Source: an uncultured Candidatus Rokubacteria bacterium
GTDB lineage: Bacteria > Methylomirabilota > Methylomirabilia > Rokubacteriales > CSP1-6
DNA length: 64,000 bases
Assembly (NCBI GenBank): GCA_963762145.1
Contig: CAVXJS010000021.1
Span: 544,001-608,000, forward strand
Reading direction: 5' to 3'
The notes below the pieces were generated by a model that was given only the letters and a program-made list of their open reading frames with translations, had not been told where the DNA came from and made no database searches. Every line of letters starts with the position of its first letter. The stretch's first letter is position 1. The translations under genes and the position numbers were made by a program. This document shows, one piece after another, positions 23,037 to 36,147 of the stretch.

Positions 23037-23171
23037 GTCATGGCGGCCGCGAGCTCTCCGCCAGCATAGGCCGGCCGCGCGCGGAATGCACGACCGCCCT
23101 CTTCGCAAACACCACCGGCGAGCCCTCTGCTATCCTTGGCCTGCTCCAGCTGGAGGGGAGATCAAGCCACC

Positions 23172-25641
23172 ATGCCGAGTGCGGCCGACTTCGAGAAGCT
23201 GGGCGTTTTCTACCTGGGCCGGCCTTACGACTGGCAGCAGAAGAAGGCGCAGGACGGGGTGATCCTCTACGACTCGAAGGACCTGGTCACCCACGCGGTC
23301 TGCGTCGGGATGACCGGCAGCGGCAAGACCGGCCTCTGCCTGGCCCTGATCGAGGAAGCGGCCATCGACGGCATCCCGGCCATCCTCATCGACCCCAAGG
23401 GCGATCTGGCCAACCTCCTGCTCACCTTCCCCGAGCTCAAGCCCGAAGACTTCCGCCCCTGGGTCAACGAGGACGACGCGCGCCGCAAGAGCCTCTCGGT
23501 GGACGACTACGCGCGCCAGCAGGCCGAGCTCTGGCAGAAGGGGCTCGCGTCCTGGGGCGAGGACGGCGCCCGCATCCAGCGCCTGCGCGACGCGGCCGAC
23601 TTCGCGGTCTACACCCCCGGGAGCAATGCGGGCATCCCGCTGTCCATCCTCAAGTCCTTCGCGGCTCCGCCCCCGGCGATTCGCGAGGACGAGGAGCTGC
23701 TGCGCGAGCGGATCGGCACCACCGCCACCAGCCTGCTCGGCCTCCTCGGCATCGACGCCGACCCGATCAAGAGCCGGGAGCACATCCTGATCGCGACGAT
23801 CCTCGATGCCGCGTGGCGCCAGGGACAGGAGGTCGACCTCCCGGGCCTCATCCAGCAGATCCAGACGCCGCCGGTGAAGCGCGTCGGCGTCCTCGAGCTG
23901 GACGCGTTCTTCCCCTCCAAGGACCGGTTCGCCCTCGCGATGTCGCTCAACAACCTGCTGGCCGCCCCCGGCTTCGGGGCCTGGATGGAGGGCGAGCCGC
24001 TCGACGTGGGCAACCTGCTGCACACGCCCGAGGGCAAGCCGCGCGTGGCCATCGTCTCGATCGCGCATCTCAACGACGCCGAGCGCATGTTCTTCGTCTC
24101 GCTCCTGCTCAACCAGGTGGTGGGCTGGATGCGCACGCAGTCCGGCACCACCAGCCTGCGCGCGCTGCTCTACATGGACGAGATCTTCGGCTTCTTCCCG
24201 CCGGTGGCGAACCCGCCGTCGAAGACGCCGCTGCTCACGCTGCTCAAGCAGGCCCGCGCCTTCGGTGTGGGCGTGGTGCTCGCCACCCAGAATCCGGTGG
24301 ACCTCGACTACAAGGGGCTCTCCAACACCGGGACCTGGTTCATCGGCCGGCTGCAGACCGAGCGGGACAAGGCGCGCCTGCTCGACGGCCTCGAGGGCGC
24401 GGCCGGCGGCGCCGGGAAGGGGTTCGACCGCTCGGAGCTCGAGCGCATCCTCTCGGGGCTCTCGAGCCGCGTCTTCCTGATGAACAACGTGCACGAGGAC
24501 CGCGCCGTGGTGTTCGAGAGCCGCTGGGCCATGTCCTATCTGCGCGGGCCGCTGACGCGCGCCCAGATCAAGACGCTGATGGATCCGCGGCGCGCTGCCG
24601 CCGCGCCCGGCGCCTCGAGCGCGGCCGCTCCCGCCAGGGGCGGTCGCGCGGCCACCGCCACGCCGGCCTCGGCCCCGAGCGGAGGGAGCGAGCGGCCGCT
24701 CCTGCCGCCCGACGTCCCTCAGCATTTCGTCCCGGTGCGTGGCACCGCGCCCGCGGGATCGACGCTCCTCTACCGGCCCATGCTCTTCGGATCGGCCCAG
24801 GTCCGGGTGGCCGACGCCAAGAGCAAGGTGGACCTGAGCCGCGACCTGGCCTTCCTCGCTCCGATCACCGGCGAAGCGGTGCCGGTGAGCTGGGAGCAGG
24901 CCGCTCCGGCCACCATCACCTCCTCCGACCTGGCGCCGGCCGCCGAGGGCGAGGCGGCTGTTCGCCGAGCTGCCCGCGGCGGCGGGCCGGAAGAAGAGCT
25001 ACGACGGCTGGACCAAGGACTTCGCGGGCTGGCTACTCTCGTCGCAGCGGGTCGAGCTGCTGCGCAGCCCGTCGCTCAAGGCGGTGTCCCGGCCGGAAGA
25101 GTCCGAGCGCGACTTCCGGGTGCGGCTGCAGGAGTCCACGCGCGAGACGCGAGACCAGGCCAAGGAGAAGCTGCGCCAGAAGTACGCGCCGAAGATCGCG
25201 GCGCTGGAAGAGCGCAAGCGCCGGGCCGAGCAGGCGGTGGCGCGCGAGAACGAGCAGGTCAAGCAGCAGGGCCTGCAGACCGCGATCTCGGTGGGCGCGA
25301 CGATCCTGGGGGCCTTCCTCGGCCGCAAGTCCGTCTCGGTCGGCAGCATCGGCCGCGCCACGACCGCCGCCCGCAGCGCGGGCCGCGTCCTGAAGGAGAC
25401 GCAGGATGTGGGTCGCGCCCGGGAGTCGGTGGCGGCGGTGGACGAGGCGCTCGCCCGCCTCGACGAGCAGTTCAAGGCCGACGCGGAGGCCGCCGGCGCG
25501 GCGACCGATCCGCTGACCGAGGAGCTCGAGACGCTGGCGCTCAAGCCCACGCGGCAGAACATCTCGGTCCGGCTGGTCACGCTGGCCTGGGCCCCGCACT
25601 GGCGCGACCGCGCCGGCGCCCTCTCCCCGGCCTGGGAGTAG
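23172..25641 (+). CDS. HerA/FtsK-superfamily (DUF87-like) P-loop ATPase with a +1 frameshift near 24955
   Basis: Walker A GMTGSGKT, Walker B LYMDE, QARAFGV, ATQNP; the C-terminal coiled coil continues in another frame to TAG 25641. Confidence 0.85.
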
Positions 25642-25731
25642 GCCAAAGAGGGTCAGTAAGGCTTACCCGGTCTCTTGGATCCTGCAGGGGATTGAGTCGC
25701 GTTTCCCCTTGATTCTCCCCAGTTTTCGGCC

Positions 25732-25747
25732 CGGCACGCCCCTTGCG
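25732..25747 (+). promoter_or_regulatory. sigma54 -24/-12 promoter candidate
   Basis: CGGCACGCCCCTTGCG (GG-N10-GC) upstream of SD AAGGAGG and ATG 25777. Confidence 0.6.
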
Positions 25748-25776
25748 ATGCTCCACTATCACAAGGAGGATCAGCC

Positions 25777-25974
25777 ATGGTTGAGACCGGAACGATCCTG
25801 TTGGCCTTCGGCGTGGTACTGGTCGCTATCGTTTTAGCCTTCGGCCTGGACTGGCTTGCCGTCGCGATTCCTCTCCTGTTTGCCACTGGAGGGGCCTACG
25901 TGCTCTTCACGCTGATCCGGCTTTGGTCGCGGCGCGGGCGGCGCAAGAAGACGCACGACCGGATGGCGGCTTAG
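25777..25974 (+). CDS. Small 2-TM membrane protein
   Basis: Strong SD, two hydrophobic helices, basic tail. Confidence 0.7.
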   Translation: MVETGTILLAFGVVLVAIVLAFGLDWLAVAIPLLFATGGAYVLFTLIRLWSRRGRRKKTHDRMAA

Positions 25975-26010
25975 TCCCATAGGAGCCGGGGCCGGGCGCA
26001 ACGTCCCCGC

Positions 26011-26367
26011 TCATCTGCGCCGGGCCTCATAACATCCGAGATGGGCGTCCCCCTCGGGCTCGCGGTAGCGCGGTTCGCCGGGTCGAATCGGCTTCCGGCA
26101 GTGTCGACACGTCGGCTCCACCGGCATGCCACTCGACTCCTCGCGCCAGATCGTGTAGCACGCGTCGTGCGCCACCAGGACCACACCGGGTCCGTCGACC
26201 TGACACTCGACTTCGGCTGGGCCGATTTCACGACGACATACAAGGCAGGGTCGGCCGGTGCCGCGATGGGGATTGTACGCCCCACGGACAGACGGTAGAC
26301 GCCCTTGCGCCAACCGGATTCGTACCTGCTGCCGCAGCTGCTCCTCGGGGAGTGATGAGGTCGTCAT
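26011..26367 (-). CDS. Small protein with two Zn-finger-like modules
   Basis: CLVC...HDAC and CRHC...HLGC; SD GGAG. Confidence 0.65.
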   Translation of the reverse strand: MTTSSLPEEQLRQQVRIRLAQGRLPSVRGAYNPHRGTGRPCLVCRREIGPAEVECQVDGPGVVLVAHDACYTIWREESSGMPVEPTCRHCRKPIRPGEPRYREPEGDAHLGCYEARRR

Positions 26368-26504
26368 GGCGACTCCGGTATGACTGGCTCGTGTGACAAG
26401 GAGGTTGTAGCGGAGCCAGATGCCACGGGGTGGGACGCCACGGCGCGTCAACCAGCGAGCCCGATGGAAGGCAAACGAAGCCTACACCCTATAGGTGAAC
26501 CGAA

Positions 26505-27206
26505 CTAGAGAGAGGAAAGCATCGTTACACCGAGTATCGGCGGGCCGACTGGCCTGCTCGGATCGATGTCTACCCTGGCCATGACGGGTCGGAGGTTTTT
26601 CCCCTCCACCAGTATCTCGGCGGCACATGCATCGCGGAGCGCCCCGCTCGACGTGTTCACCGCCCACGTATAGGGGCCTCTTACCGACCCAAACAGTAAG
26701 TGGAAGTGGTGGTGTCCCGACTGGATTGACGTATTGATCCGACGACCAACCGCACCCTCCCCATACCAAAACAATTCCAGCTTGCCAATGGTCGGCCCGG
26801 GTGTAACGGACGCCAGGTAGACATGGACATCTTCAGCGGTCTGGCCTCTGTTCCAGACACCAAGGCACACCTGCGTGCCCGACTCGTCGTAACAGCCCTC
26901 ACATCGAGGATTGAAAGCTACTTCCAGGTTTGGCTCCGAGGCGGTCCGATGGGCCATGGCGCGGTCTCTGCGGTGGATTGCATCGTCTCTATCGCGGATC
27001 GATCGGTATGACCCTTCAAGCACGGCCGCGACGAAGAGTACCAGCCAGCCGATCACCCACTGCCACCACTCGAGTGCTGGAAGAATGTTCGGCAGACGCC
27101 ATTCATCCTTGAAGGATTGATAGAGCTGCAGGAGGACATACACGGTCGTCAGCGTCCAGACCCATGGACGCCAGACCACTTCCTTCCAAGCGCGTAAGCG
27201 GCCCAC
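26505..27206 (-). CDS. Hypothetical protein with two N-terminal TM helices
   Basis: Long low-GC ORF; start uncertain (GTG 27206). Confidence 0.55.
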   Translation of the reverse strand: MGRLRAWKEVVWRPWVWTLTTVYVLLQLYQSFKDEWRLPNILPALEWWQWVIGWLVLFVAAVLEGSYRSIRDRDDAIHRRDRAMAHRTASEPNLEVAFNPRCEGCYDESGTQVCLGVWNRGQTAEDVHVYLASVTPGPTIGKLELFWYGEGAVGRRINTSIQSGHHHFHLLFGSVRGPYTWAVNTSSGALRDACAAEILVEGKNLRPVMARVDIDPSRPVGPPILGVTMLSSL

Positions 27207-27305
27207 GATGCTTGCCCTGGTCCTGCCATAGCCTAGCGCTTCTTTCGGCGGGCAGTAAACCGTCGTTTCGGCGTGTCCACGCCCGGCGCGAGGGGGCCAC
27301 TCTGG

Positions 27306-27342
27306 CCTCACGAGAAATGGAGGGTCTCGTGTATCGTGGTTG
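27306..27342 (+). repeat. 37-bp direct repeat, copy 1 (att-like)
   Basis: CCTCACGAGAAATGGAGGGTCTCGTGTATCGTGGTTG, identical to 33510-33546. Confidence 0.92.
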
Positions 27343-27709
27343 GTCCACGACGCCCCTCGACACACCGAAAGATGCAGGTTCTGATCCTGCAAAGGACGGC
27401 AAGACGTAGCATCGCGTACCGCGCATCCGCAAGCCCCGCGCAACCGACGCGGATGAGCTGAAACGGCCGAATCCGGTTGCCGGGGCCCCCTTCCCGGGTC
27501 CCATCGGGAGCTTGGCCCTGCCCGTGGCCGCGTGCGCGTCTCGCGTGGCCAAATCGACAAATCGGGCTGCACGCAGTTCCTGAGCCTGCGAATTGAGAGC
27601 TGCAAATCTAACAACCCCTCCGGGGTCAATCCCGGGATGCGGTGCGGTTCGCTGTCGTCAGCTTGACCTGCCCACGGCTGACTTCTAGCCTCGTCCTAGG
27701 AGGTATGCG

Positions 27710-27994
27710 ATGAAGGAGAGCCGGATTCTTGCCATGGGTATGGCGCTGCTTTTCGCTGGCTGTGCATCTTCGTCACCGGATGCTGCCAAAGTCCGCGTCG
27801 TGAATGACGCGAAGCTCGTTAGCACCTGTCAGGTGCTCGGCACGGTGGCCGACAACGAGTTCGAGGACCTGCAAAAGAAGGCGGCTCGCCTGGGCGGGGA
27901 TGTTGCCCTCATGACACCAGAGCGCAAGGCGAAGGGCGGCTACTTCGGGCTCCAAGACTACATGACCGCTGACGTGTACAGGTGCCGTCGGTGA
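27710..27994 (+). CDS. Small lipoprotein
   Basis: Lipobox FAGC; SD AGGAGG; TTGACC-N17-TAGCCT promoter at 27663-27691. Confidence 0.8.
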   Translation: MKESRILAMGMALLFAGCASSSPDAAKVRVVNDAKLVSTCQVLGTVADNEFEDLQKKAARLGGDVALMTPERKAKGGYFGLQDYMTADVYRCRR

Positions 27995-28065
27995 TCTTCT
28001 CCCGATAGTCTGACACCAAGGGCGGTGAAGGAGTGCTGTCCCTCACCGCCCGAGGCGGCTGGGAG

Positions 28066-28353
28066 CTAGCGCCGCTGGTACGGGTTCGTGCCGAGAGTGT
28101 TCGGCTGCGTCCCGTAGAGCCCGGAACTTCTCGGCGACCGCGTTCCCGGCTGTCCCGTGTAGGGGTTCACGTTCCCCTGCGTGGACCAGTTGTTGAGGCG
28201 GTTGCCGTCTGTCGTGGAGCGCATGTGAGGCTGGACGTAGGTGCCATCTTGCCGCGTGTAGCCCCGGACGCGCGTGTCTCCCGCGATAGCGGTTCCGACG
28301 AGCGGCGCGAGGGTCAAAACGGCCAGAAGTGAAGCGAGGACAAGTCGCAGCAT
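28066..28353 (-). CDS. Small secreted protein (VRGYTRxDGTYVxPH...GNVNPYTG family)
   Basis: Signal peptide plus a recognisable motif of a widespread hypothetical family. Confidence 0.75.
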   Translation of the reverse strand: MLRLVLASLLAVLTLAPLVGTAIAGDTRVRGYTRQDGTYVQPHMRSTTDGNRLNNWSTQGNVNPYTGQPGTRSPRSSGLYGTQPNTLGTNPYQRR

Positions 28354-28569
28354 CTTTGCTGGACCTTCTGTCGGGTACTCGCACAGGACGATGGGGCTCT
28401 ACCCGTGGCGTCAGACTAGCAGGTCTAGGAGCAACGAATCGGCAAATCAGCCGTAGGCACGCTGTCTCCGAGGGTGCTCACTTGACGAGCCGCCCGGCTC
28501 GCCCTACGCTGCCGCCGATGCCGAACACGCCGCCCGTGCCTGTTCTCGCTCCCGCCGAGCAGACTTGAC

Positions 28570-28713
28570 ATGCCGGAACTGCTCGCCGCCCTCGACGCAT
28601 TCCTGCAGGAGCCCGCGGGCCGCATCACAATCGACGCGATCGTGACGATGCTGACGTGGCACGACGACAACCACCTGGACCAGTTGCGCCGGGCGCTGGA
28701 AGGGAAGGCCTGA
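28570..28713 (+). pseudogene. Chimeric remnant ending in a DinB-like C-terminus
   Basis: MPELLAALDAFLQEP fused to GRITIDAIVTMLTWHDDNHLDQLRRALEGKA* (HDxxH). Confidence 0.45.
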
Positions 28714-28826
28714 GAGCGTAGGAAACACTAGCACCCTCCGGCGGCGGTCGCCCCGTCCGTGGCCCCCGGCCCCGTGACGTAACCTCCCAGACTCGGACGC
28801 TGGCCGCCCCAGGAGCCGCTGCCACA

Positions 28827-28919
28827 GCCGGAATGTTCCTCGCCATTCCGATCATCACGGTAGTCAAAGTGCTAGTGGCGAGCAGCGCGAAAAACCTCAA
28901 AGCGTACAGGCTGGTCTGA
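28827..28919 (+). pseudogene. C-terminal fragment of an AI-2E family transporter
   Basis: AGMFLAIPIITVVKVLVASSAKNLKAYRLV*. Confidence 0.45.
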
Positions 28920-29167
28920 AGAGATCACGCCTCAGGTTTCGACCAGAGCTACCGCGTAATGGTCGCTACGTCCAAGCATCGGATGGTGGAGGACAGTTAC
29001 ATTTAGGTGACAGGGCGCCGCTGCTGAGACCGCAAGCTTTAGTGGCCGAGGGTCGCTGCTGCTGCAAGACGCGCGGCATTTGCGTCCACTCCGAGCAGCG
29101 CGTTCGCCAGGGCCAGAGCGGTTGTATCGTCGCTTCTCGACGGAGCTGAGGTTTGCATGCGTGCCAA

Positions 29168-30571
29168 TCACCGCCTCGGCACCCGCCAGAAAGACCCCGC
29201 GATTTGTTCGAGGGGCCGGCCGGGCTCGTTAGGCCGCAGACCGTATCGCAGCATCGCAATGATGTCGGCGCTAACCTGCGGATTGGAAATGAAGTAGGAG
29301 TGGCCGAAGAAGTCTGTTGTCCCGCGGACCTGGATGATGTCGACTGCGCGCAACAAGGCGATCGCTTCGATCTGGTCAGCGCTGAACATCGTCGCGTCGA
29401 TCCGCCCGAGCCGGGCGATGCTGCCGAACAGCCAGCTCGCCGTCGCGAGCGCCGTGTCGTCGGGCGAAACGTAGAGGGTGACCCTGAGGCCAGGTGAAGG
29501 GGGGATGACGGCGCCCGGGTCCGCTTTCCCGCCGAACGGCAAGTCAGGGTCGGAGAAGACTTTGAAGATCTTGGTCAGCGCGACGTCGCCATCGAGGTCG
29601 GGAGCGACGAGGACAACATTGCCGATGCGAAACTCGCGATCCGGTGAGCTCTGGAGTGTGTAGGCTTCGGCGCTGAGCGAGGCCAGCGCCGATGCGAGAG
29701 TGTCCGTGCCGCGGCTATGCGCGATGAGGTGGATACGCTCCACGCCCGGCGTCCGGCCGACGATCCGGATCGCCTTCAACAGGTCCTCGACCGCGTATTC
29801 GGCCGACTCCCTGTCGACGACGTAACCGAAGAGTATGCCGCGCTGTCCGCCGGCGGGCCACGTGAAGATGCCGCACACGAAGTCCCGTCCCAGGAAATGG
29901 CACAGCTCGCCCATCGTCAGCGCTGCATCTTGAAGCTGCTGTGGTAGCCGTGCACGAACAGCACGACTTCCTTGCGGCGCGCGATGGCGAGCCGCCTCGC
30001 AATCTCGGCTTGCAGCTGCTGCTTCGCTTTTTCGTACGCCTCGACGACGGCGGGCACACGTCTTATGCCATCCGGAGCGACAGTGACTTCATACGGTATG
30101 GCCGGAAAGCGACCGAGCTCCGTGGTCGGCCCGAGCTTGAGCTGCAGTGGATTGACGCGTGGCGTTGCAGTGCTTTCCTTAACCAGCACGTCCCAGGAGA
30201 CGTCTTCGCCGAACTCGATCATCGCCGATCCGAACCCCATCGAACGCGATCGGCCCGCGGTGTACCGCAAGTCATCGGCTTGCTCTGCCGGTGCGCGATC
30301 GGTGATAAACAGCAGATCGAGAGACGGCCGGCGACTGTCGATCGACAACTCGGCGAAGAGCGGCCTCGCATTCTCCCCTGTGTAGAGCACCGGGGTCGGC
30401 ATCATCGTGTAGGTTCGTCGCGCAACCTGTCAGGACGAATGCGATGGCGGCGATGACGATGGCTGATCGCGCTCCGGGCGCAGGATAGTCGACATCAAGG
30501 CCGTCCCGCGGCGATCGCCTCGCCGGTGGGACGCCCCAGGCAGCCGTAGGAGCCACCGCCACAGCGTACAT
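29168..30571 (-). pseudogene. DUF900-type alpha/beta-hydrolase lipoprotein, two frameshifts (~30410, ~29930)
   Basis: Lipobox LTGC, VLFVHGY, FTWPAGG, IAHSRG, LVAPDLD, GHSYF spread over three frames; SD GAGGAGG. Confidence 0.75.
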
Positions 30572-30919
30572 TAGCAGCCTCCTCGCGCGCGCCGACCACG
30601 CCCGCCTGGCTGAGCGGCATCCTATGCCGGCACACTGCCGCCGTCAACCGGCAGGTGGCCCGGCCAGCTCAGCGCGGATGTCACCTCGCCGCGCAGGCAC
30701 GACGGCGTCCATCGCGCCCTCGAAGTGCCGATCAGGACTCGGGTGGCGCGGGGCCGGCCGCGCTCGTCGAGCCAGGTGGGGCGGGTTCATGGTCGGTGCC
30801 GGAGGCTACCACCGAGCAAGCACATGGCGCTACGCTGCCCCTACCCGGGTGCTACGGCCGCGCCCGGCCATCGCCCGAAGGGGATGAGCCGTGCTCTTGA
30901 GGCTGTCCCTTCGGCTCTT

Positions 30920-31549
30920 CTACGGCCCGTCTTGCTTCCGCTTCCGCTGCCTCCAGCGAGCCAGTCCCAAGCCTGCCGCCGCTGTGCCGAAGAGGAGAAG
31001 AGTGGCAGGCTCTGGGACGGCCGTGGGTGAATGCTCTCCGTGAAGAGTAAATTCCACGGGACCATCTAGTCCGGGGTTCCTATACGCGAGTGTGTAGTTG
31101 TCGAAGTGCGGCATATGAGGAACTGACGTTCCGAAGATCGGAGTCACCGCGTTATTCACGAGCAGTTGGTTTACCGCAAGGTTTGGGAACTCCGGCTCGC
31201 CGGATTGAGGGCTCACCATGTTGAAGCTTCCCTTGAACTGTGTCCCCTTGTCCAAGGTGTCCTGCTGGTCCCCCTTTACGAGATGCTGCCCTATGAAGTT
31301 GAAGAGAAACTGCGTGTGTTCTTGATTGAGAGGTCGGACCTGAACGCTGGAATCCCACTTAGGATGCTCAACACTTGGCCCGGTAAACGCTGGTTGGATC
31401 ACACGCTCCCAACTGAATTTCCATGTGAACTCCGTATCGCTCTCTGTGTAAGCAAGCGTGTTGATCGGAGCGGCGTGGGTGGGAGGAGTGCTGAGAGGAC
31501 CGAGTAGGACACTCAACACGGCAGTCAAGAGAATGTAACTGAGATGCAT
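30920..31549 (-). CDS. PEP-CTERM sorting-domain surface protein
   Basis: Signal peptide; C-terminal VPEPATLLLFGTAAAGLGLARWRQRKRK; SD AGGAGG. Confidence 0.88.
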   Translation of the reverse strand: MHLSYILLTAVLSVLLGPLSTPPTHAAPINTLAYTESDTEFTWKFSWERVIQPAFTGPSVEHPKWDSSVQVRPLNQEHTQFLFNFIGQHLVKGDQQDTLDKGTQFKGSFNMVSPQSGEPEFPNLAVNQLLVNNAVTPIFGTSVPHMPHFDNYTLAYRNPGLDGPVEFTLHGEHSPTAVPEPATLLLFGTAAAGLGLARWRQRKRKQDGP

Positions 31550-31711
31550 GCCCATACCTCCTACCGTCCTTAGGACGCAAGACTCTCGGACCCGGGTTGT
31601 CGCAGACGGTGCTCAGGGGGCGACACACTGGCTGAACTCTATGCCCGCGCCGGATTTGGAAGTCAAGCAAGTCCGAACTCTAGCAGCCTGACCGTCGCTG
31701 TCCTCCGCGTG

Positions 31712-31952
31712 CTACTTCGCCTCGCCTTCCACCACGATCAGCCGCCATCGGCCGTCACGGCCCGGCACCGGGATTCCTTCGACCGGTGCCCGCACCACTC
31801 CACCGTTGCTCCACACCCTGAACGGCTCCCACTTGTACCACTTGAGCAGCTCAGGCGGGATGTGCGAATACCGGAATCTCCCGCCCACATGTCGGACATG
31901 GACGCTTGGCGTGAGGCTGGCCGCGCTCGTCAAGCCATGTGGGCGGGTTCAT
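31712..31952 (-). pseudogene. Decayed small Zn-ribbon-like protein (MNPPTWLDERG...CPTC)
   Basis: ATG 31952 frame stops after 33 aa; C-terminus in other frames; a degenerate second copy of the 5' end starts at 30790. Confidence 0.45.
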
Positions 31953-32114
31953 GGGCCATGGTAGCGGTCTCGACACACTCTCGTCTACACTCCCCCGCGA
32001 GGTCATGGAACTTCGAACGTGGCTAGAATGGTGCTACGCGACGGAAGCTGAGGCGGTTGCGGACCGGCGATGTAGCGTTCCGAGCGGTGCGGCTGCGAGT
32101 CACGGAGGGAGCGC

Positions 32115-32351
32115 ATGAACGACCGGGCGAACGACCATGTGACGCTTCTAGGTGTCGCACTCGCCGGGGCTGTTAGCATGGCGGCTGGAGAAGGCGACTG
32201 GCAAGCGACGAGTAGCCTCATCGGTGGGACGCTCATTCTTATCCTAGTCACATACGAGCCGCCCGGTGTCGGCGGCAATTGGTTGCGTGGGGTTTCCTGG
32301 GGCGCAGTTCTAGGATTGTGTCTCATACTCGTGGCTGGGCCATTCATCTGA
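32115..32351 (+). CDS. Small membrane protein
   Basis: SD GGAGG; three hydrophobic segments. Confidence 0.55.
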   Translation: MNDRANDHVTLLGVALAGAVSMAAGEGDWQATSSLIGGTLILILVTYEPPGVGGNWLRGVSWGAVLGLCLILVAGPFI

Positions 32352-32528
32352 ACCCGCCGGACAGCCCGCGGGCCCAATGCCTGTCCGTGATTATTTGGGG
32401 CATTTCGGTGGCAATTGGCATCGTACTCTGCCGTCGCACTCCCGGATGACTGGCAACCTCGAAGGTCGCTGCCCTTTAGATGAGCGCCCGGCACGGATCA
32501 GCGGCTTTAGTCTAACGGGACCAACTAA

Positions 32529-33382
32529 CTAGCGCAGCGCCCGCCCTACTTCCTCGACCATACCGACGTAGATGCTTCGTCGCCCATGACATTTGATGAT
32601 GCGTCGATCCCCTACACGCGGTTCTTGATAGAACGCAACCCCTGACAAGATCGTGCTCCCTACCTCTAGGTCCCGGTTCGCATTCCGCTTCACGGGGACT
32701 TGCCACAGGCCCGCGCCACTGTAGCCACCAAAGTCGGTTGGCGGTCCGTTCTGGCCACCGTATCCAGCTTCAAAGTCCAAGTAGTCGAACTCGCCGGTGA
32801 CATACTCAGTCTCGACCCACCCTCTGCCGATTCCACCCTCGAAGGTAACTATCTGATTAAATCCCCGTTCAGGACCCGCGCGGTGGTGCCTTCACCGGCG
32901 AACCCGCATAGGAACCACAGACCCTCAGTCAAAGCCCGGGGCGCTGGTAACACGTAGTCAGCGGAGAGCTGATAGAACGATTTTCGGGCTAGGAGTGGTC
33001 CTACGTCCACATCTGCTAACACTAGTAGCCCAAGATCAGGGCCGTCCTCTGCGCGACATCCGGTCTGCAAGGTTACGCTACGTGTGGCGTATCGCGGGAT
33101 CGTCGCGCGCTGGATGAGGGGCTGATTCGTACCCGCGTACAAGAGACCGATAGTGTCGCTTTCTCGCAGGTGTGCAAGTACGTGGGCGGCGGTGAGAACT
33201 CCGTACGTGCCTCCCACGCGAACCAACGTACCCGAGCCGCCAAGTTCCGCTATCTCGCCAGTGCCTAGACCCGGCCGGACGAATCCTATCGAGAAGTTCG
33301 AGATTCTCTGACAGGCGTCCTCGATCAGCTCAGGCGGCAATGCGGTTAGCGGAACGATGTCGGGATCGTCTTCTTGGGCCAC
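32529..33382 (-). pseudogene. Trypsin-like serine protease, frameshifted near 32880
   Basis: GSGTLV..LTAAHV (His), DLGLL (Asp) in ORF 32849-33382; GYSGAGLW (Ser) in ORF 32529-32780. Confidence 0.75.
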
Positions 33383-33509
33383 GTCAGTCGGCTCCCATCA
33401 GCGGAACGTTAGCGACCCGAGCCTTCCTTGATGGCGAGAAGTCTACCAAACACCGTAGACGGCTTGGATACGCACGAATCCGCAAGTCGGGCGCACGAAG
33501 ACACTCTAA

Positions 33510-33546
33510 CCTCACGAGAAATGGAGGGTCTCGTGTATCGTGGTTG
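33510..33546 (+). repeat. 37-bp direct repeat, copy 2, directly upstream of the thermonuclease gene
   Basis: Identical to 27306-27342; internal inverted repeat CACGAGA-N9-TCTCGTG. Confidence 0.92.
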
Positions 33547-33552
33547 ATAACC

Positions 33553-34098
33553 ATGCGTGCGCGCGTCGTCGCCTCCCTCCTCGCGCTTGCCGCTCTCCTC
33601 TTTCTCGTCGCGCCGTCGATCACCCCCTCGCCCACCGGCGGCCCTTCACTCACCGCCAACCCCTCTCTCCCCAGAGGGGAGAGGGCGGAGCTGAGTGGGA
33701 CGGTGGTGCGGACGGTGGATGGGGACACCGTGTGGGTCAAGCTGGCGAGCGGGGTGGAGAAGGTGCGGTACATCGGGATCGACACGCCGGAGGTCCATCA
33801 CCCGACCCGCGGGGAGGAGCCGGGCGGACGCGCGGCCACCGAGATCAACCGCGGGCTCGTGGGCGACCGCCCGGTGCGGCTCGAGCCCGACGTGCAGCTC
33901 CGCGACCGCCACGGGCGTCTCCTGGCCTACGTGTGGGTCAAGCGCGCGGACGGCGCGGAGGTCATGGTCAACGCGGAGATGGTGCGCCTCGGCTACGCCC
34001 AGGTGTTGACGGTCCCGCCCAACGTGCGGCACGCGGAGATGTTCCGCAAGCTGGCCGCCGAGGCCCGCGAGCAGCGCCGGGGCCTCTGGGCGCCCTGA
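33553..34098 (+). CDS. Thermonuclease (SNase-like) family protein
   Basis: Signal/TM; VDGDT, VRYIGIDTPE, DRHGRLLAYV, NAEMVRLGYA, RRGLW. Confidence 0.92.
   Translation: MRARVVASLLALAALLFLVAPSITPSPTGGPSLTANPSLPRGERAELSGTVVRTVDGDTVWVKLASGVEKVRYIGIDTPEVHHPTRGEEPGGRAATEINRGLVGDRPVRLEPDVQLRDRHGRLLAYVWVKRADGAEVMVNAEMVRLGYAQVLTVPPNVRHAEMFRKLAAEAREQRRGLWAP
33648..33699. repeat. CCCTCTCCC/GGGAGAGGG palindromic repeat, in-frame in the thermonuclease linker
   Basis: CCCTCTCTCCCC-AGA-GGGGAGAGGG, same family as 40718 and 42391. Confidence 0.6.
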
Positions 34099-34117
34099 GC
34101 GGTATACTGGGCCTTCC

Positions 34118-35113
34118 ATGAAGATCGGCTCGGTCGAGATCCCCGCGCTGGCCCGCCTGGCCCCGATGGCCGGCATCACCAATGCGCCATTCCGGCTCGT
34201 CGCGCGGGAGTGCGGCAGCGGGCTCACCACCTCCGAGGAAATGGACGCCTCCGCGCTGCTCACCGGCCACCCGCACGCCGACGCGATCGCCGCGTACTAT
34301 CCCGAGGAGCGGCCGCTGGCCATGCAGCTCCTCGGGAAGGATCCCGATCTGCTCGCGCGGGCCGCCGAGCGCTGCCAGCTCCTGGGCGCCGACATCGTGG
34401 ATCTGAACATGGGCTGCCCGATGCCCAAGATCACCGGCAAGGGCAAGGGCGCCGCGCTGATGCGCGACGTCGCCGCGACCTCGGTGGTCCTGCGCGCGCT
34501 CCGCAAGGCGGTGAGCGTGCCGCTCACGGTCAAGATCCGCGGCGGCTGGGACGACGAGCATCTCAACGCGGTCGAGGTCGCCCAGATGGCGGAGGCCGAG
34601 GGCGTGGACGCCATCACGGTCCACCCGCGCACGCGCTCGCAACGCTTCACCGGCCGCGCGCCCTGGACGATCATCCGCGAGGTCGTGGAGGCGGTGTCGG
34701 TGCCGGTCACCGGCAACGGCGACGTGCACTCGATGGCGGAGGCGCGGCGCATGGTCGCGGAGACCGGCTGCGTCTCGGTGATGGTCGGCCGCGGCGCGCT
34801 CGGCAGCCCCTGGATCTTCGACGAGTCGTTCGAGGCGCTCTCGCGCGAGGGCCAGCGCGCCTACAAGGCCCGCGTGATTGCCCGGCACGTGGCGCTGATC
34901 CGCGAGCACTTCGGCGAGAAGTACGCGCTGGTGCAGATGAAGAAGCACCTCGCGTGGTACACGGAGGGGCTCGGCCACGCCACCGAGTGCCGCGCCCGCA
35001 TCTTCCAGACGCGCGAGCCGGACGAGGTGTGGGACCTGTTCCAGTCCTACTGGGAGCGCCCCCGCCCCGAAATCTCCCAGACCGCCTCGACCTGGTCGCC
35101 CCGCATCGCGTAG
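34118..35113 (+). CDS. dusB: tRNA-dihydrouridine synthase
   Basis: LAPMAGITN, DLNMGCP, TVKIR.GWD, VHPRT, GNGD, MVGRGA, KHLAWY. Confidence 0.9.
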   Translation: MKIGSVEIPALARLAPMAGITNAPFRLVARECGSGLTTSEEMDASALLTGHPHADAIAAYYPEERPLAMQLLGKDPDLLARAAERCQLLGADIVDLNMGCPMPKITGKGKGAALMRDVAATSVVLRALRKAVSVPLTVKIRGGWDDEHLNAVEVAQMAEAEGVDAITVHPRTRSQRFTGRAPWTIIREVVEAVSVPVTGNGDVHSMAEARRMVAETGCVSVMVGRGALGSPWIFDESFEALSREGQRAYKARVIARHVALIREHFGEKYALVQMKKHLAWYTEGLGHATECRARIFQTREPDEVWDLFQSYWERPRPEISQTASTWSPRIA

Positions 35114-36147
35114 ATCCGGTCGTAGAGGTTGATGGTCGGATCGCAGTGCGGCGGGAAGAACTCGATGAGCTGCCCGAGCTTGGGCAGCCGCCCCGGCTCG
35201 CTGGTCATGAGCCGTCCGTGCTCGTCACCCGCCCAGGAGAACTCGACCCCGGGCCACTCGACCGTCTCCGGCACGAACGGCCGGTCGGTGGAGAACGCCT
35301 TGAAGCCGCCGTCCACCATCGCCATCTCCGCGGTCGGCACGCTCACCACCGTGGTCAGCACGGTCAGCGCCATCTCGAAGTCGTCGTAGGCCGCCCCGCG
35401 CGGGCCGCCGATGCGCCGGTAGTCGAGGTCCATCACGCAGTAGGAGCCGGACTGCAGCTCGGTGAGCCCCTCGAGATCCACGTCGATGTTGAAGGTGCCG
35501 CTCGACCCGCCGGTCACGATCTCCACCGCCATGCCGTGCTTCTCGAAGAGCTCGCGTGTCCGCATGAGCCGGCTCATCCAGCGCTTCGACGACCGCCGCC
35601 GCTCCTCGAAGCCCATCACGTGGGCGCAGTGGCCCGCGTAGCCCTGCAGCCCGCGGAGGTGGAGCGCGGGCTGCGCGAGCACCTCGCGGCCCAGATCCCG
35701 CGCCGGCTCGCCCGGCTGGCACCCGGTACGGCGGCCGCCCACGTCCACGTCCACCAGCACGTTGAGCACGAGGCCCGCGTCCTTCACGGCCCGACCGAGC
35801 TCGTGCACGTTGTCCGGGTGGTCCACGACCGCCATGGTCTCGGGCTGGCGCCGGAGCACGTCCAGCAGCCGGCCGATCTTCTCGGGCCCCACCACCTCGG
35901 TGGTGATGAGGAGATTGCGCACGCCGGCGGCGGCCATGACCTCGGCCTCGCTCACCTTCGCCACGCAGACGCCGACCGCGCCGGCCGCGATCTGACGGCG
36001 GGCGATCTCCGGGCACTTGTGGGTCTTGGAGTGGGGGCGGAGCTTCTTGCCGGCGGCCTTCACGTGGGCCGCCATCTTCTGGATATTGCGCTCGAAGCGG
36101 TCGAGGTCCAGCAGCAGCGCGGGCGTGGGGAGCTCGGATCGGTTCAT
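35047..36147 (-). CDS. PLP-dependent fold III enzyme (DSD1/D-threonine aldolase-like)
   Basis: LPTPALLLD, RPHSKTHK, RTG, YAGH, ELQSGSY, DEHG, HCDPT. Confidence 0.9.
   Translation of the reverse strand: MNRSELPTPALLLDLDRFERNIQKMAAHVKAAGKKLRPHSKTHKCPEIARRQIAAGAVGVCVAKVSEAEVMAAAGVRNLLITTEVVGPEKIGRLLDVLRRQPETMAVVDHPDNVHELGRAVKDAGLVLNVLVDVDVGGRRTGCQPGEPARDLGREVLAQPALHLRGLQGYAGHCAHVMGFEERRRSSKRWMSRLMRTRELFEKHGMAVEIVTGGSSGTFNIDVDLEGLTELQSGSYCVMDLDYRRIGGPRGAAYDDFEMALTVLTTVVSVPTAEMAMVDGGFKAFSTDRPFVPETVEWPGVEFSWAGDEHGRLMTSEPGRLPKLGQLIEFFPPHCDPTINLYDRIYAMRGDQVEAVWEISGRGRSQ

Follow-up and report, generated by a model that had tools for sequence, protein, structure and literature searches.

Integrase gene tails in a direct repeat that flanks foreign cargo before a nuclease gene of an uncultured Rokubacteria genome

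The repeat pair and its setting

The window considered here is a 64,000-nucleotide stretch of DNA from an uncultured Candidatus Rokubacteria bacterium (assembly GCA_963762145.1, contig CAVXJS010000021.1, positions 544,001 to 608,000 of the forward strand). The source genome, designated G000, comprises 25 contigs and 6.26 Mb (GC ∼70%, 88% complete), and the contig that carries the window is 1.2 Mb long. Within this stretch a 37-bp sequence, CCTCACGAGAAATGGAGGGTCTCGTGTATCGTGGTTG, occurs as two exact copies on the plus strand, at 27306-27342 (copy 1) and 33510-33546 (copy 2), the second of which ends 6 nt before the ATG (33553) of a gene for a nuclease of the SNase family. Read in frame, the repeat encodes the C-terminus of a tyrosine integrase, and the two copies are probably hybrid attachment (att) junctions of tyrosine-integrase islands that inserted serially at a palindrome in front of the nuclease gene. 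The features of the locus are listed below, E1 and E2 denoting the older and the nuclease-proximal putative island, respectively, and int the integrase gene.

23136-25641, plus strand: geneA, encoding a HerA/DUF87-like ATPase, the left conserved flank (weak Pfam match to HerA_C/DUF87; stop codon TAG at 25639-25641)
25642-27297, no strand assigned: older low-GC insert, a putative remnant of E1 (GC 0.60-0.66; absent from the related genomes G001 and G005)
27298-27342, plus strand: repeat copy 1, an attP-like (P-O-P′) junction made up of 14 int codons and the 14-bp core GTGTATCGTGGTTG (27329-27342)
27343-27457, plus strand: putative P′ arm, the left end of E2, which diverges from the chromosomal ATAC...ATG right after GTTG
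27458-28610, plus strand: cargo module that includes a gene for a DUF4156 lipoprotein (27710-27994) and has a second copy in a tRNA-Lys island on contig C9
29168-30405, minus strand: DUF900 alpha/beta-hydrolase gene, split over two frames (Pfam E = 3e-41)
30920-31555, minus strand: PEP-CTERM protein gene (PF07589, E = 9e-7)
32529-33382, minus strand: two adjacent open reading frames (ORFs) that on direct reading resemble a trypsin-like serine protease cut in two (TAAHV ... GYSGAG), with no Pfam match
33374-33544, plus strand: 3′ remnant of int (pseudogene), of which 33428-33544 encodes 39 residues like the C-terminus of protein P0001
33502-33546, plus strand: repeat copy 2, an attR-type (P-O-B′) junction, the int stop codon TGA lying at 33545-33547
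33534-33551, no strand assigned: chromosomal core palindrome TGTATC-GTGGTT-GATA(C)A, the putative attB core, conserved in front of the nuclease ATG in every relative examined
33553-34098, plus strand: secreted SNase-family nuclease gene, the right conserved flank (PF00565, E = 3.7e-21)
34118-35113, plus strand: tRNA-dihydrouridine synthase gene (dus), conserved core (PF01207, E = 4e-83)

None of 100 shuffles gave a 37-mer match. The motif CACTCT-NN stands 5′ of both copies, extending them to a 45-bp repeat (27298-27342 and 33502-33546), and a third copy of the 37-mer is absent from the whole genome when up to six substitutions are allowed. The inserted DNA is thus bounded by an att-type direct repeat, identical at 37 of 37 and, in its longer form, at 43 of 45 positions, of which these are the only two copies in the genome. 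The 37-mer contains the dyad CACGAGA-N9-TCTCGTG, with a predicted fold of −7.6 kcal/mol (z = −2.26). GC content is 0.58-0.62 over 32500-33499 and at least 0.70 from 33500 onwards, so copy 2 sits at the switch to high-GC DNA. Identity between the copies breaks off right after GTTG, the right edge of the palindrome's spacer, beyond which one copy is followed by chromosomal and the other by element sequence. As a scan of the whole window matched no Rfam family and no tRNA or tmRNA gene is present in it, the site is not the end of a tRNA or of a small RNA. A duplication introduced by assembly is unlikely, given the differing flanks, the 6.2 kb between the copies and the position of both inside a 1.2-Mb contig. 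The original prediction, made from the sequence of the window, had described the exact pair with its CACTCT-NN leaders, the dyad, the GC switch in front of the nuclease gene and the lack of a tRNA end, all of which are confirmed here.

An integrase gene tail in the repeat

In frame, the repeat reads ...TL(A/T)SREMEGLVYRG, and the 37-mer corresponds to the last 12 int codons together with the first base of the stop codon. A degenerate pattern derived from the repeat matched two genus genomes (G011 and G013) among ∼185,000 species genomes, as well as 14 soil-type metagenome contigs, and gave no match in viral contigs. In all 16 of these loci the motif lies directly 5′ of the nuclease ATG, the frame upstream reads ...LRVYTHLIPREGRRAVD.LDTHESASLAHEDTLTPREMEGLVYRG followed by a stop codon, and what is present of int is a 3′ remnant of ∼11 to 90 residues. 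The int stop codon TGA, within GGT-TGA, falls inside the palindrome in every tail-bearing locus. A search for longer proteins with this tail retrieved P0001 (138 aa) and P0002 (311 aa), both of which match Pfam Phage_integrase, and a further search led to full-length relatives of 394-402 aa (66-75% identity), most of which display PF14659, PF22022 and PF00589. The metagenome protein P0004 (395 aa) contains all three domains and terminates in ...STRESDHLVYRG (...HLVYRG), while P0024 and P0040 end in ...SLVYRG; the tails differ in other full-length members. The best relative of P0004 in viral contigs is 35% identical.

The sequence leading into copy 2 (33428-33544) shares 72% identity over 39 aa with the C-terminus of P0001 (E = 4e-17) and 53% with that of P0004 (E = 1e-8). 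An in-frame stop codon occurs just upstream of this frame, which identifies the int sequence at copy 2 as a remnant. The final 14 residues of the integrase (TLASREMEGLVYRG) are encoded by copy 1 (27299-27340) and are 86% identical over 14 aa to the C-terminus of P0001; the frame of copy 1 continues for 21 codons beyond the core (WSTTPLDTPKDAGSDPAKDGKT, then a stop codon) into DNA that bears no relation to the chromosome, as an attP-type junction should. The int ORF therefore spans the att core, its stop codon lying inside the palindrome at copy 2 while the frame at copy 1 runs on, and copy 1 would represent the free (unintegrated) form of the sequence. What remains of the integrase next to the att sites amounts to 14 codons for copy 1 and 39-57 for copy 2.

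These data bear on the statement of the original prediction that the cargo carries no recombinase. Matches to recombinase, transposase, excisionase or transfer families are indeed lacking in all 84 stop-to-stop frames of at least 60 aa between 25641 and 33552, that is, in the cargo and to its left. PF00589 has no match on the 1.2-Mb contig, the serine recombinase family PF00239 has none in the whole genome, and no integrase with this tail is found elsewhere in G000 (88% complete), so the co-occurring recombinase that had been anticipated did not emerge. When the integrases encoded by G000 itself were compared by tblastn with the related loci, nothing was found at E = 1e-3. The best order-level relatives of P0002 (in G130, G172 and G118; 50-57% identity) were considered as an intact version of the element and rejected, as their C-termini are different and no homologue of the nuclease gene, dus or geneA adjoins them. 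The puzzle of the missing recombinase is resolved by the repeat itself, which is the 3′ end of an int gene whose body is deleted, and the suggestion that the locus represents an undescribed system is correspondingly not upheld.

The locus in related genomes

The region 25000-36000 of the window was compared with 40 related genomes. Across the genus geneA and the nuclease gene are neighbours, and in all 13 genus relatives that were read an 18-bp palindrome, TGTATC-N6-GATACA, lies directly 5′ of the nuclease ATG. The core GTGTATCGTGGTTG, with at most two mismatches, occurs once in front of this ATG in each of these 13 genomes and in each of the 14 metagenome contigs. Two genomes, G001 and G005, are empty alleles in which 45 nt, including the palindrome with a single core, separate the geneA stop codon from the nuclease ATG; G017 is apparently empty too, judged by alignment coordinates only. 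Unoccupied sites with a single core are thus found in relatives, all 27 loci having one core. Between the geneA stop codon and the core, the genus genomes have anything from 0 to 7.9 kb of DNA, the upper value being that of G000. In G007, G019, G002 and G013 the two genes are separated by 0.9-2.7 kb of unrelated DNA, which in G013 comprises a gene for an ABC substrate-binding protein and two small secreted or lipoprotein ORFs, without an integrase. In four further genomes (G009, G008, G010 and G004; L019-L022) the space of 0.3-0.4 kb is occupied by a small ORF with a signal peptide and conserved Cys residues; this ORF comes in two sequence types.

Immediately 5′ of the core, alleles without the int tail have a G and those that bear it a C. 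Comparison of the empty form (G-GTGTATCGTGGTTG-ATAC) and the tail-bearing form (C at the left of the core, ATAC at its right) with copy 1 (C at the left, GTCC at the right) delimits a 14-bp segment of identity, the right breakpoint of which is the edge of the palindrome's 6-bp spacer. The occurrence of single-core empty alleles and of differently filled alleles bears out the original prediction of a site-specific integration locus. Its expectations for the 37-mer were borne out in part: empty alleles do carry a single site before the nuclease gene, but what is present there is the 14-18-bp core rather than the 37-mer, and no relative has extra copies flanking cargo.

The distribution of the int tail was set against a maximum-likelihood tree of 19 rows, built from the 850 nt that begin at the nuclease ATG and thus span the nuclease gene and the 5′ part of dus. 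The tree omits G009, G008, G010, G004 and L029, which were too short, L033 and L037, in which the contig ends soon after the motif, and L023, L024, L030 and L034, which duplicate G011 and G013. Loci with and without the tail are interspersed, the empty G001 being sister to the tail-bearing L026 (support 100/98) and the tail-bearing L027 and L032 grouping with G007, and at least three changes of tail state were counted by eye on a tree whose metagenome rows were chosen for having the tail. Recombination between strains could decouple the nuclease gene from its upstream region in such a tree. In addition, G002, G007 and G019, although scored as tail-less, may hold diverged tails, since direct reading gives ...ALVYRG, ...ALVYRS and ...AVMYRG.

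A related island is located on contig C9 of G000 (79582-84537; L062:3583-8537). This 4.9-kb element is flanked by a 45-bp exact direct repeat that constitutes the 3′ half of tRNA-Lys(ttt), with a repeat spacing of 4,910 bp, and its integrase ORF (247-259 aa) runs into the tRNA copy. The left end of the island contains the DUF4156 lipoprotein module, which is 95% identical to 27458-28019 of the window and 86% identical to 28420-28610. A homologue of 27360-28128, thus of the putative P′ arm and the lipoprotein module, was also seen in another genome (G020:C36; L018, ∼1624-1700; 84% identity), where it starts beside a GTATCG-CTTCCG-G junction upstream of a response-regulator gene. This stretch may be a related element at another site; a second copy of the GTATCG junction was not found in G020, the contig ending inside the element.

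The region of the DUF900 cargo gene (29093-30486) is 93-95% identical at the DNA level to G038 (L012) and G040 (L011), which belong to another family whose core genes are ∼76-78% identical to those of G000, and this suggests a recent horizontal transfer. The gene is an intact frame of 496 codons in G038 and is split in G000 and G040. The older insert to the left of copy 1 begins right after the geneA stop codon and contains small membrane and Cys-rich ORFs, none above the Pfam cut-off; one of these (25696-25971, plus strand) encodes a small protein with two membrane helices and sub-threshold holin-like Pfam matches (E ∼0.008). Relative to its orthologue in G013, geneA (24714-25638) changes frame near 24960, either because it is a pseudogene or because the assembly contains an indel error there. 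As this conserved gene is frameshifted too, assembly indels are possible and the apparent decay of the split cargo genes is not firm; the loss of more than 300 int codons, however, is not accounted for by indel errors. Repeats of 60-210 bp, several of them flanking the PEP-CTERM gene, occur at 28713-28827, 30543-30752, 30831-30918 and 31705-31951. They have many copies of 75-90% identity on other contigs of G000 (C9, C14, C15, C19 and C22) and in relatives, and several of them sit near integrase-bearing regions in these other places.

Origin and significance of the locus

The arrangement is probably the outcome of tyrosine-integrase islands having integrated one after another at the conserved 18-bp palindrome upstream of the nuclease gene. 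The int gene would lie at the right end of each element, with an ORF that crosses the att core, such that in the integrated state the chromosome would supply the last int codons and the stop codon (...GTG TAT CGT GGT TGA). Copy 2 (33502-33546) would then be the attR of the nuclease-proximal island E2 (27343-33546), which retains an int remnant of 39-57 codons. Copy 1 (27298-27342), which has the int tail at its left and element DNA at its right, is a P-O-P′ junction, the form expected when a second element joins a resident attR; it would have arisen through recombination of E2 with the attR of the older island E1 (25642-27342), of which only 14 int codons are left at copy 1. Both int genes would later have been deleted and attL lost, leaving the cargo stranded unless a related integrase acts in trans. 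We infer from the junctions that the crossover took place within the GTGGTT spacer, that the events followed this order and that the cargo is at present immobile. The original prediction had proposed a tandem accretion of foreign DNA at the site, and the structure fits such a serial integration. Low GC content and the gene that is 93-95% identical across families are the signs of foreign cargo that speak for this reading. It is favoured as well by the C9 island, whose layout is alike, and by the scatter of the tails over the nuclease-gene tree.

A different outcome for E2, which is conceivable but which we regard as unlikely, is that it still works as a hitch-hiker resembling the cis-mobilizable elements discussed below, being excised and re-mobilized by P0004-type integrases of soil Rokubacteria. 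In that case the palindrome would act as a live non-tRNA attB that is used repeatedly, and the tail left behind would belong to the upstream region of the nuclease gene. An integrase that acts in trans in this manner is possible and remains putative.

Several observations weigh against serial integration. An attL (B-O-P′) junction was not found in any genome, the sequence after the geneA stop codon differs in every relative, and two copies are seen only in G000, with one per locus in the 27 loci elsewhere. The O-P′ junction has no exact or near match in 158 other genomes of the family; at the level of three mismatches five genomes matched, as against two control matches, which is near chance. 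An intact integrase of this tail type is present at the locus in none of 183 genomes of the order, intact integrases of the type being known only as metagenome proteins. The variability of six tails by codon position, with 13, 11 and 16 variable columns of 32 each, says little about coding constraint either way. Finally, RecA-dependent recombination over the same 45 bp would yield the same structure. The same int tail and core could in this way have been duplicated without a site-specific recombinase, if circular or linear DNA of a related strain with this tail entered through RecA-dependent recombination, or through homology-facilitated illegitimate recombination with the nuclease side as its anchor. 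A 45-bp repeat suffices for homologous recombination, four relatives (G011, L025, L026 and L038) have a near-identical tail of ∼100 bp before the nuclease gene that is a possible anchor, and neither an attL nor an intact integrase is present. Such an origin is nevertheless improbable, since the identity extends precisely to GTTG, the right edge of the core spacer, at which chromosome and element diverge, copy 1 has the form of an attP-type junction, and the same genome harbours a textbook integrase island with a 45-bp repeat.

It is very improbable that the 37-mer is instead a regulatory element of the nuclease gene (a promoter, an operator or an RNA hairpin) that was copied with neighbouring DNA. 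Its position immediately 5′ of the nuclease ATG, the fold of its dyad (z = −2.26) and the retention of the core palindrome in all relatives examined are consistent with such a role, but no nuclease gene follows copy 1, tail-less alleles retain the nuclease gene, and a scan of 33200-33700 revealed neither a sigma-70-like promoter nor a terminator. A genome-wide search of G000 found no variants of the palindrome or its core elsewhere; a sequence that is unique in the genome is not the operator of a regulon. With E = 4e-17 over 39 aa, it is also unlikely that the resemblance of the frame to int is fortuitous. A structured RNA or riboswitch is likewise at odds with the absence of an Rfam match and with the tails themselves, as six of the seven distinct tail variants break one to five of the seven stem pairs with no compensatory change. 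An integron-like array of cassettes with a miniature attC, or an insertion of the Xer/dif type, can practically be dismissed. The ends of attC sites conform to the consensus RYYYAAC ... GTTRRRY, and the loose likeness of copy 2 (TCTAAC...GTTGATA), which the original prediction had pointed out, is all that favours an integron; on direct reading, however, CTCTAAC and GTTGATA do not fit the consensus. Moreover, no integron integrase is encoded at the locus, in keeping with the lack of PF00589 on the contig, the site has only two copies around a cargo of several genes, and its position before one gene is fixed in all relatives examined.

The locus has counterparts among known systems. As in att-flanked tyrosine-integrase islands such as the tRNA-Lys island on C9, with which it shares the left-end DUF4156 module, a 45-bp direct repeat surrounds low-GC cargo, an int gene at one end reads into the repeat, and relatives contain empty sites. 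In contrast to islands in tRNA genes, however, insertion here is at an intergenic palindrome in front of an SNase gene, the integrase is cut down to 14 and 39-57 codons, and the left copy is attP-like rather than attL. According to PMC6323972, a cis-mobilizable element (CIME) is a decayed integrative element that keeps its att sites but has lost the genes for integration and transfer. Here too att-type repeats bound cargo, none of the 84 frames encodes a recombinase or transfer protein, and accretion at one site fits; strictly, the left site is P-O-P′ and not attL. CIMEs were defined for Firmicutes elements derived from integrative and conjugative elements, whereas no remnant of conjugation is seen at this locus. 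The overlap of int and att recalls the myxophage Mx8, whose attP is situated within the int coding sequence and in which int acquires a new 3′ end upon integration (PMC6070905). The int ORF at the Rokubacteria locus similarly crosses the att core, the integrated end (...LVYRG and stop) using chromosomal bases where copy 1 has 21 further codons. Unlike in Mx8, only the last few codons are exchanged, and there is no sign of a phage, as indicated by the viral-contig searches (no pattern match; 35% identity at best for P0004). The structure works like a decayed integrative island; it fits the CIME definition, and its int/att overlap is of the Mx8 type.

What had appeared to be a recombinase-free cassette is thereby explained as an ordinary decayed integrative island, and only its target (a palindrome in front of a gene for an SNase nuclease) and the host group are new. 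Mobile elements of Rokubacteria have received little description; a limited text search on integrases and genomic islands gave no paper that names the group among the top eight results, which is weak evidence that nothing is in print. More generally, a short repeat that ends at the start of a gene may be what is left of a deleted integrase gene, and such cases are quickly resolved by translation of the repeat and a search for longer proteins. For uncultured soil Rokubacteria (Methylomirabilota), the locus establishes an attachment site other than a tRNA gene and the integrase family that goes with it.

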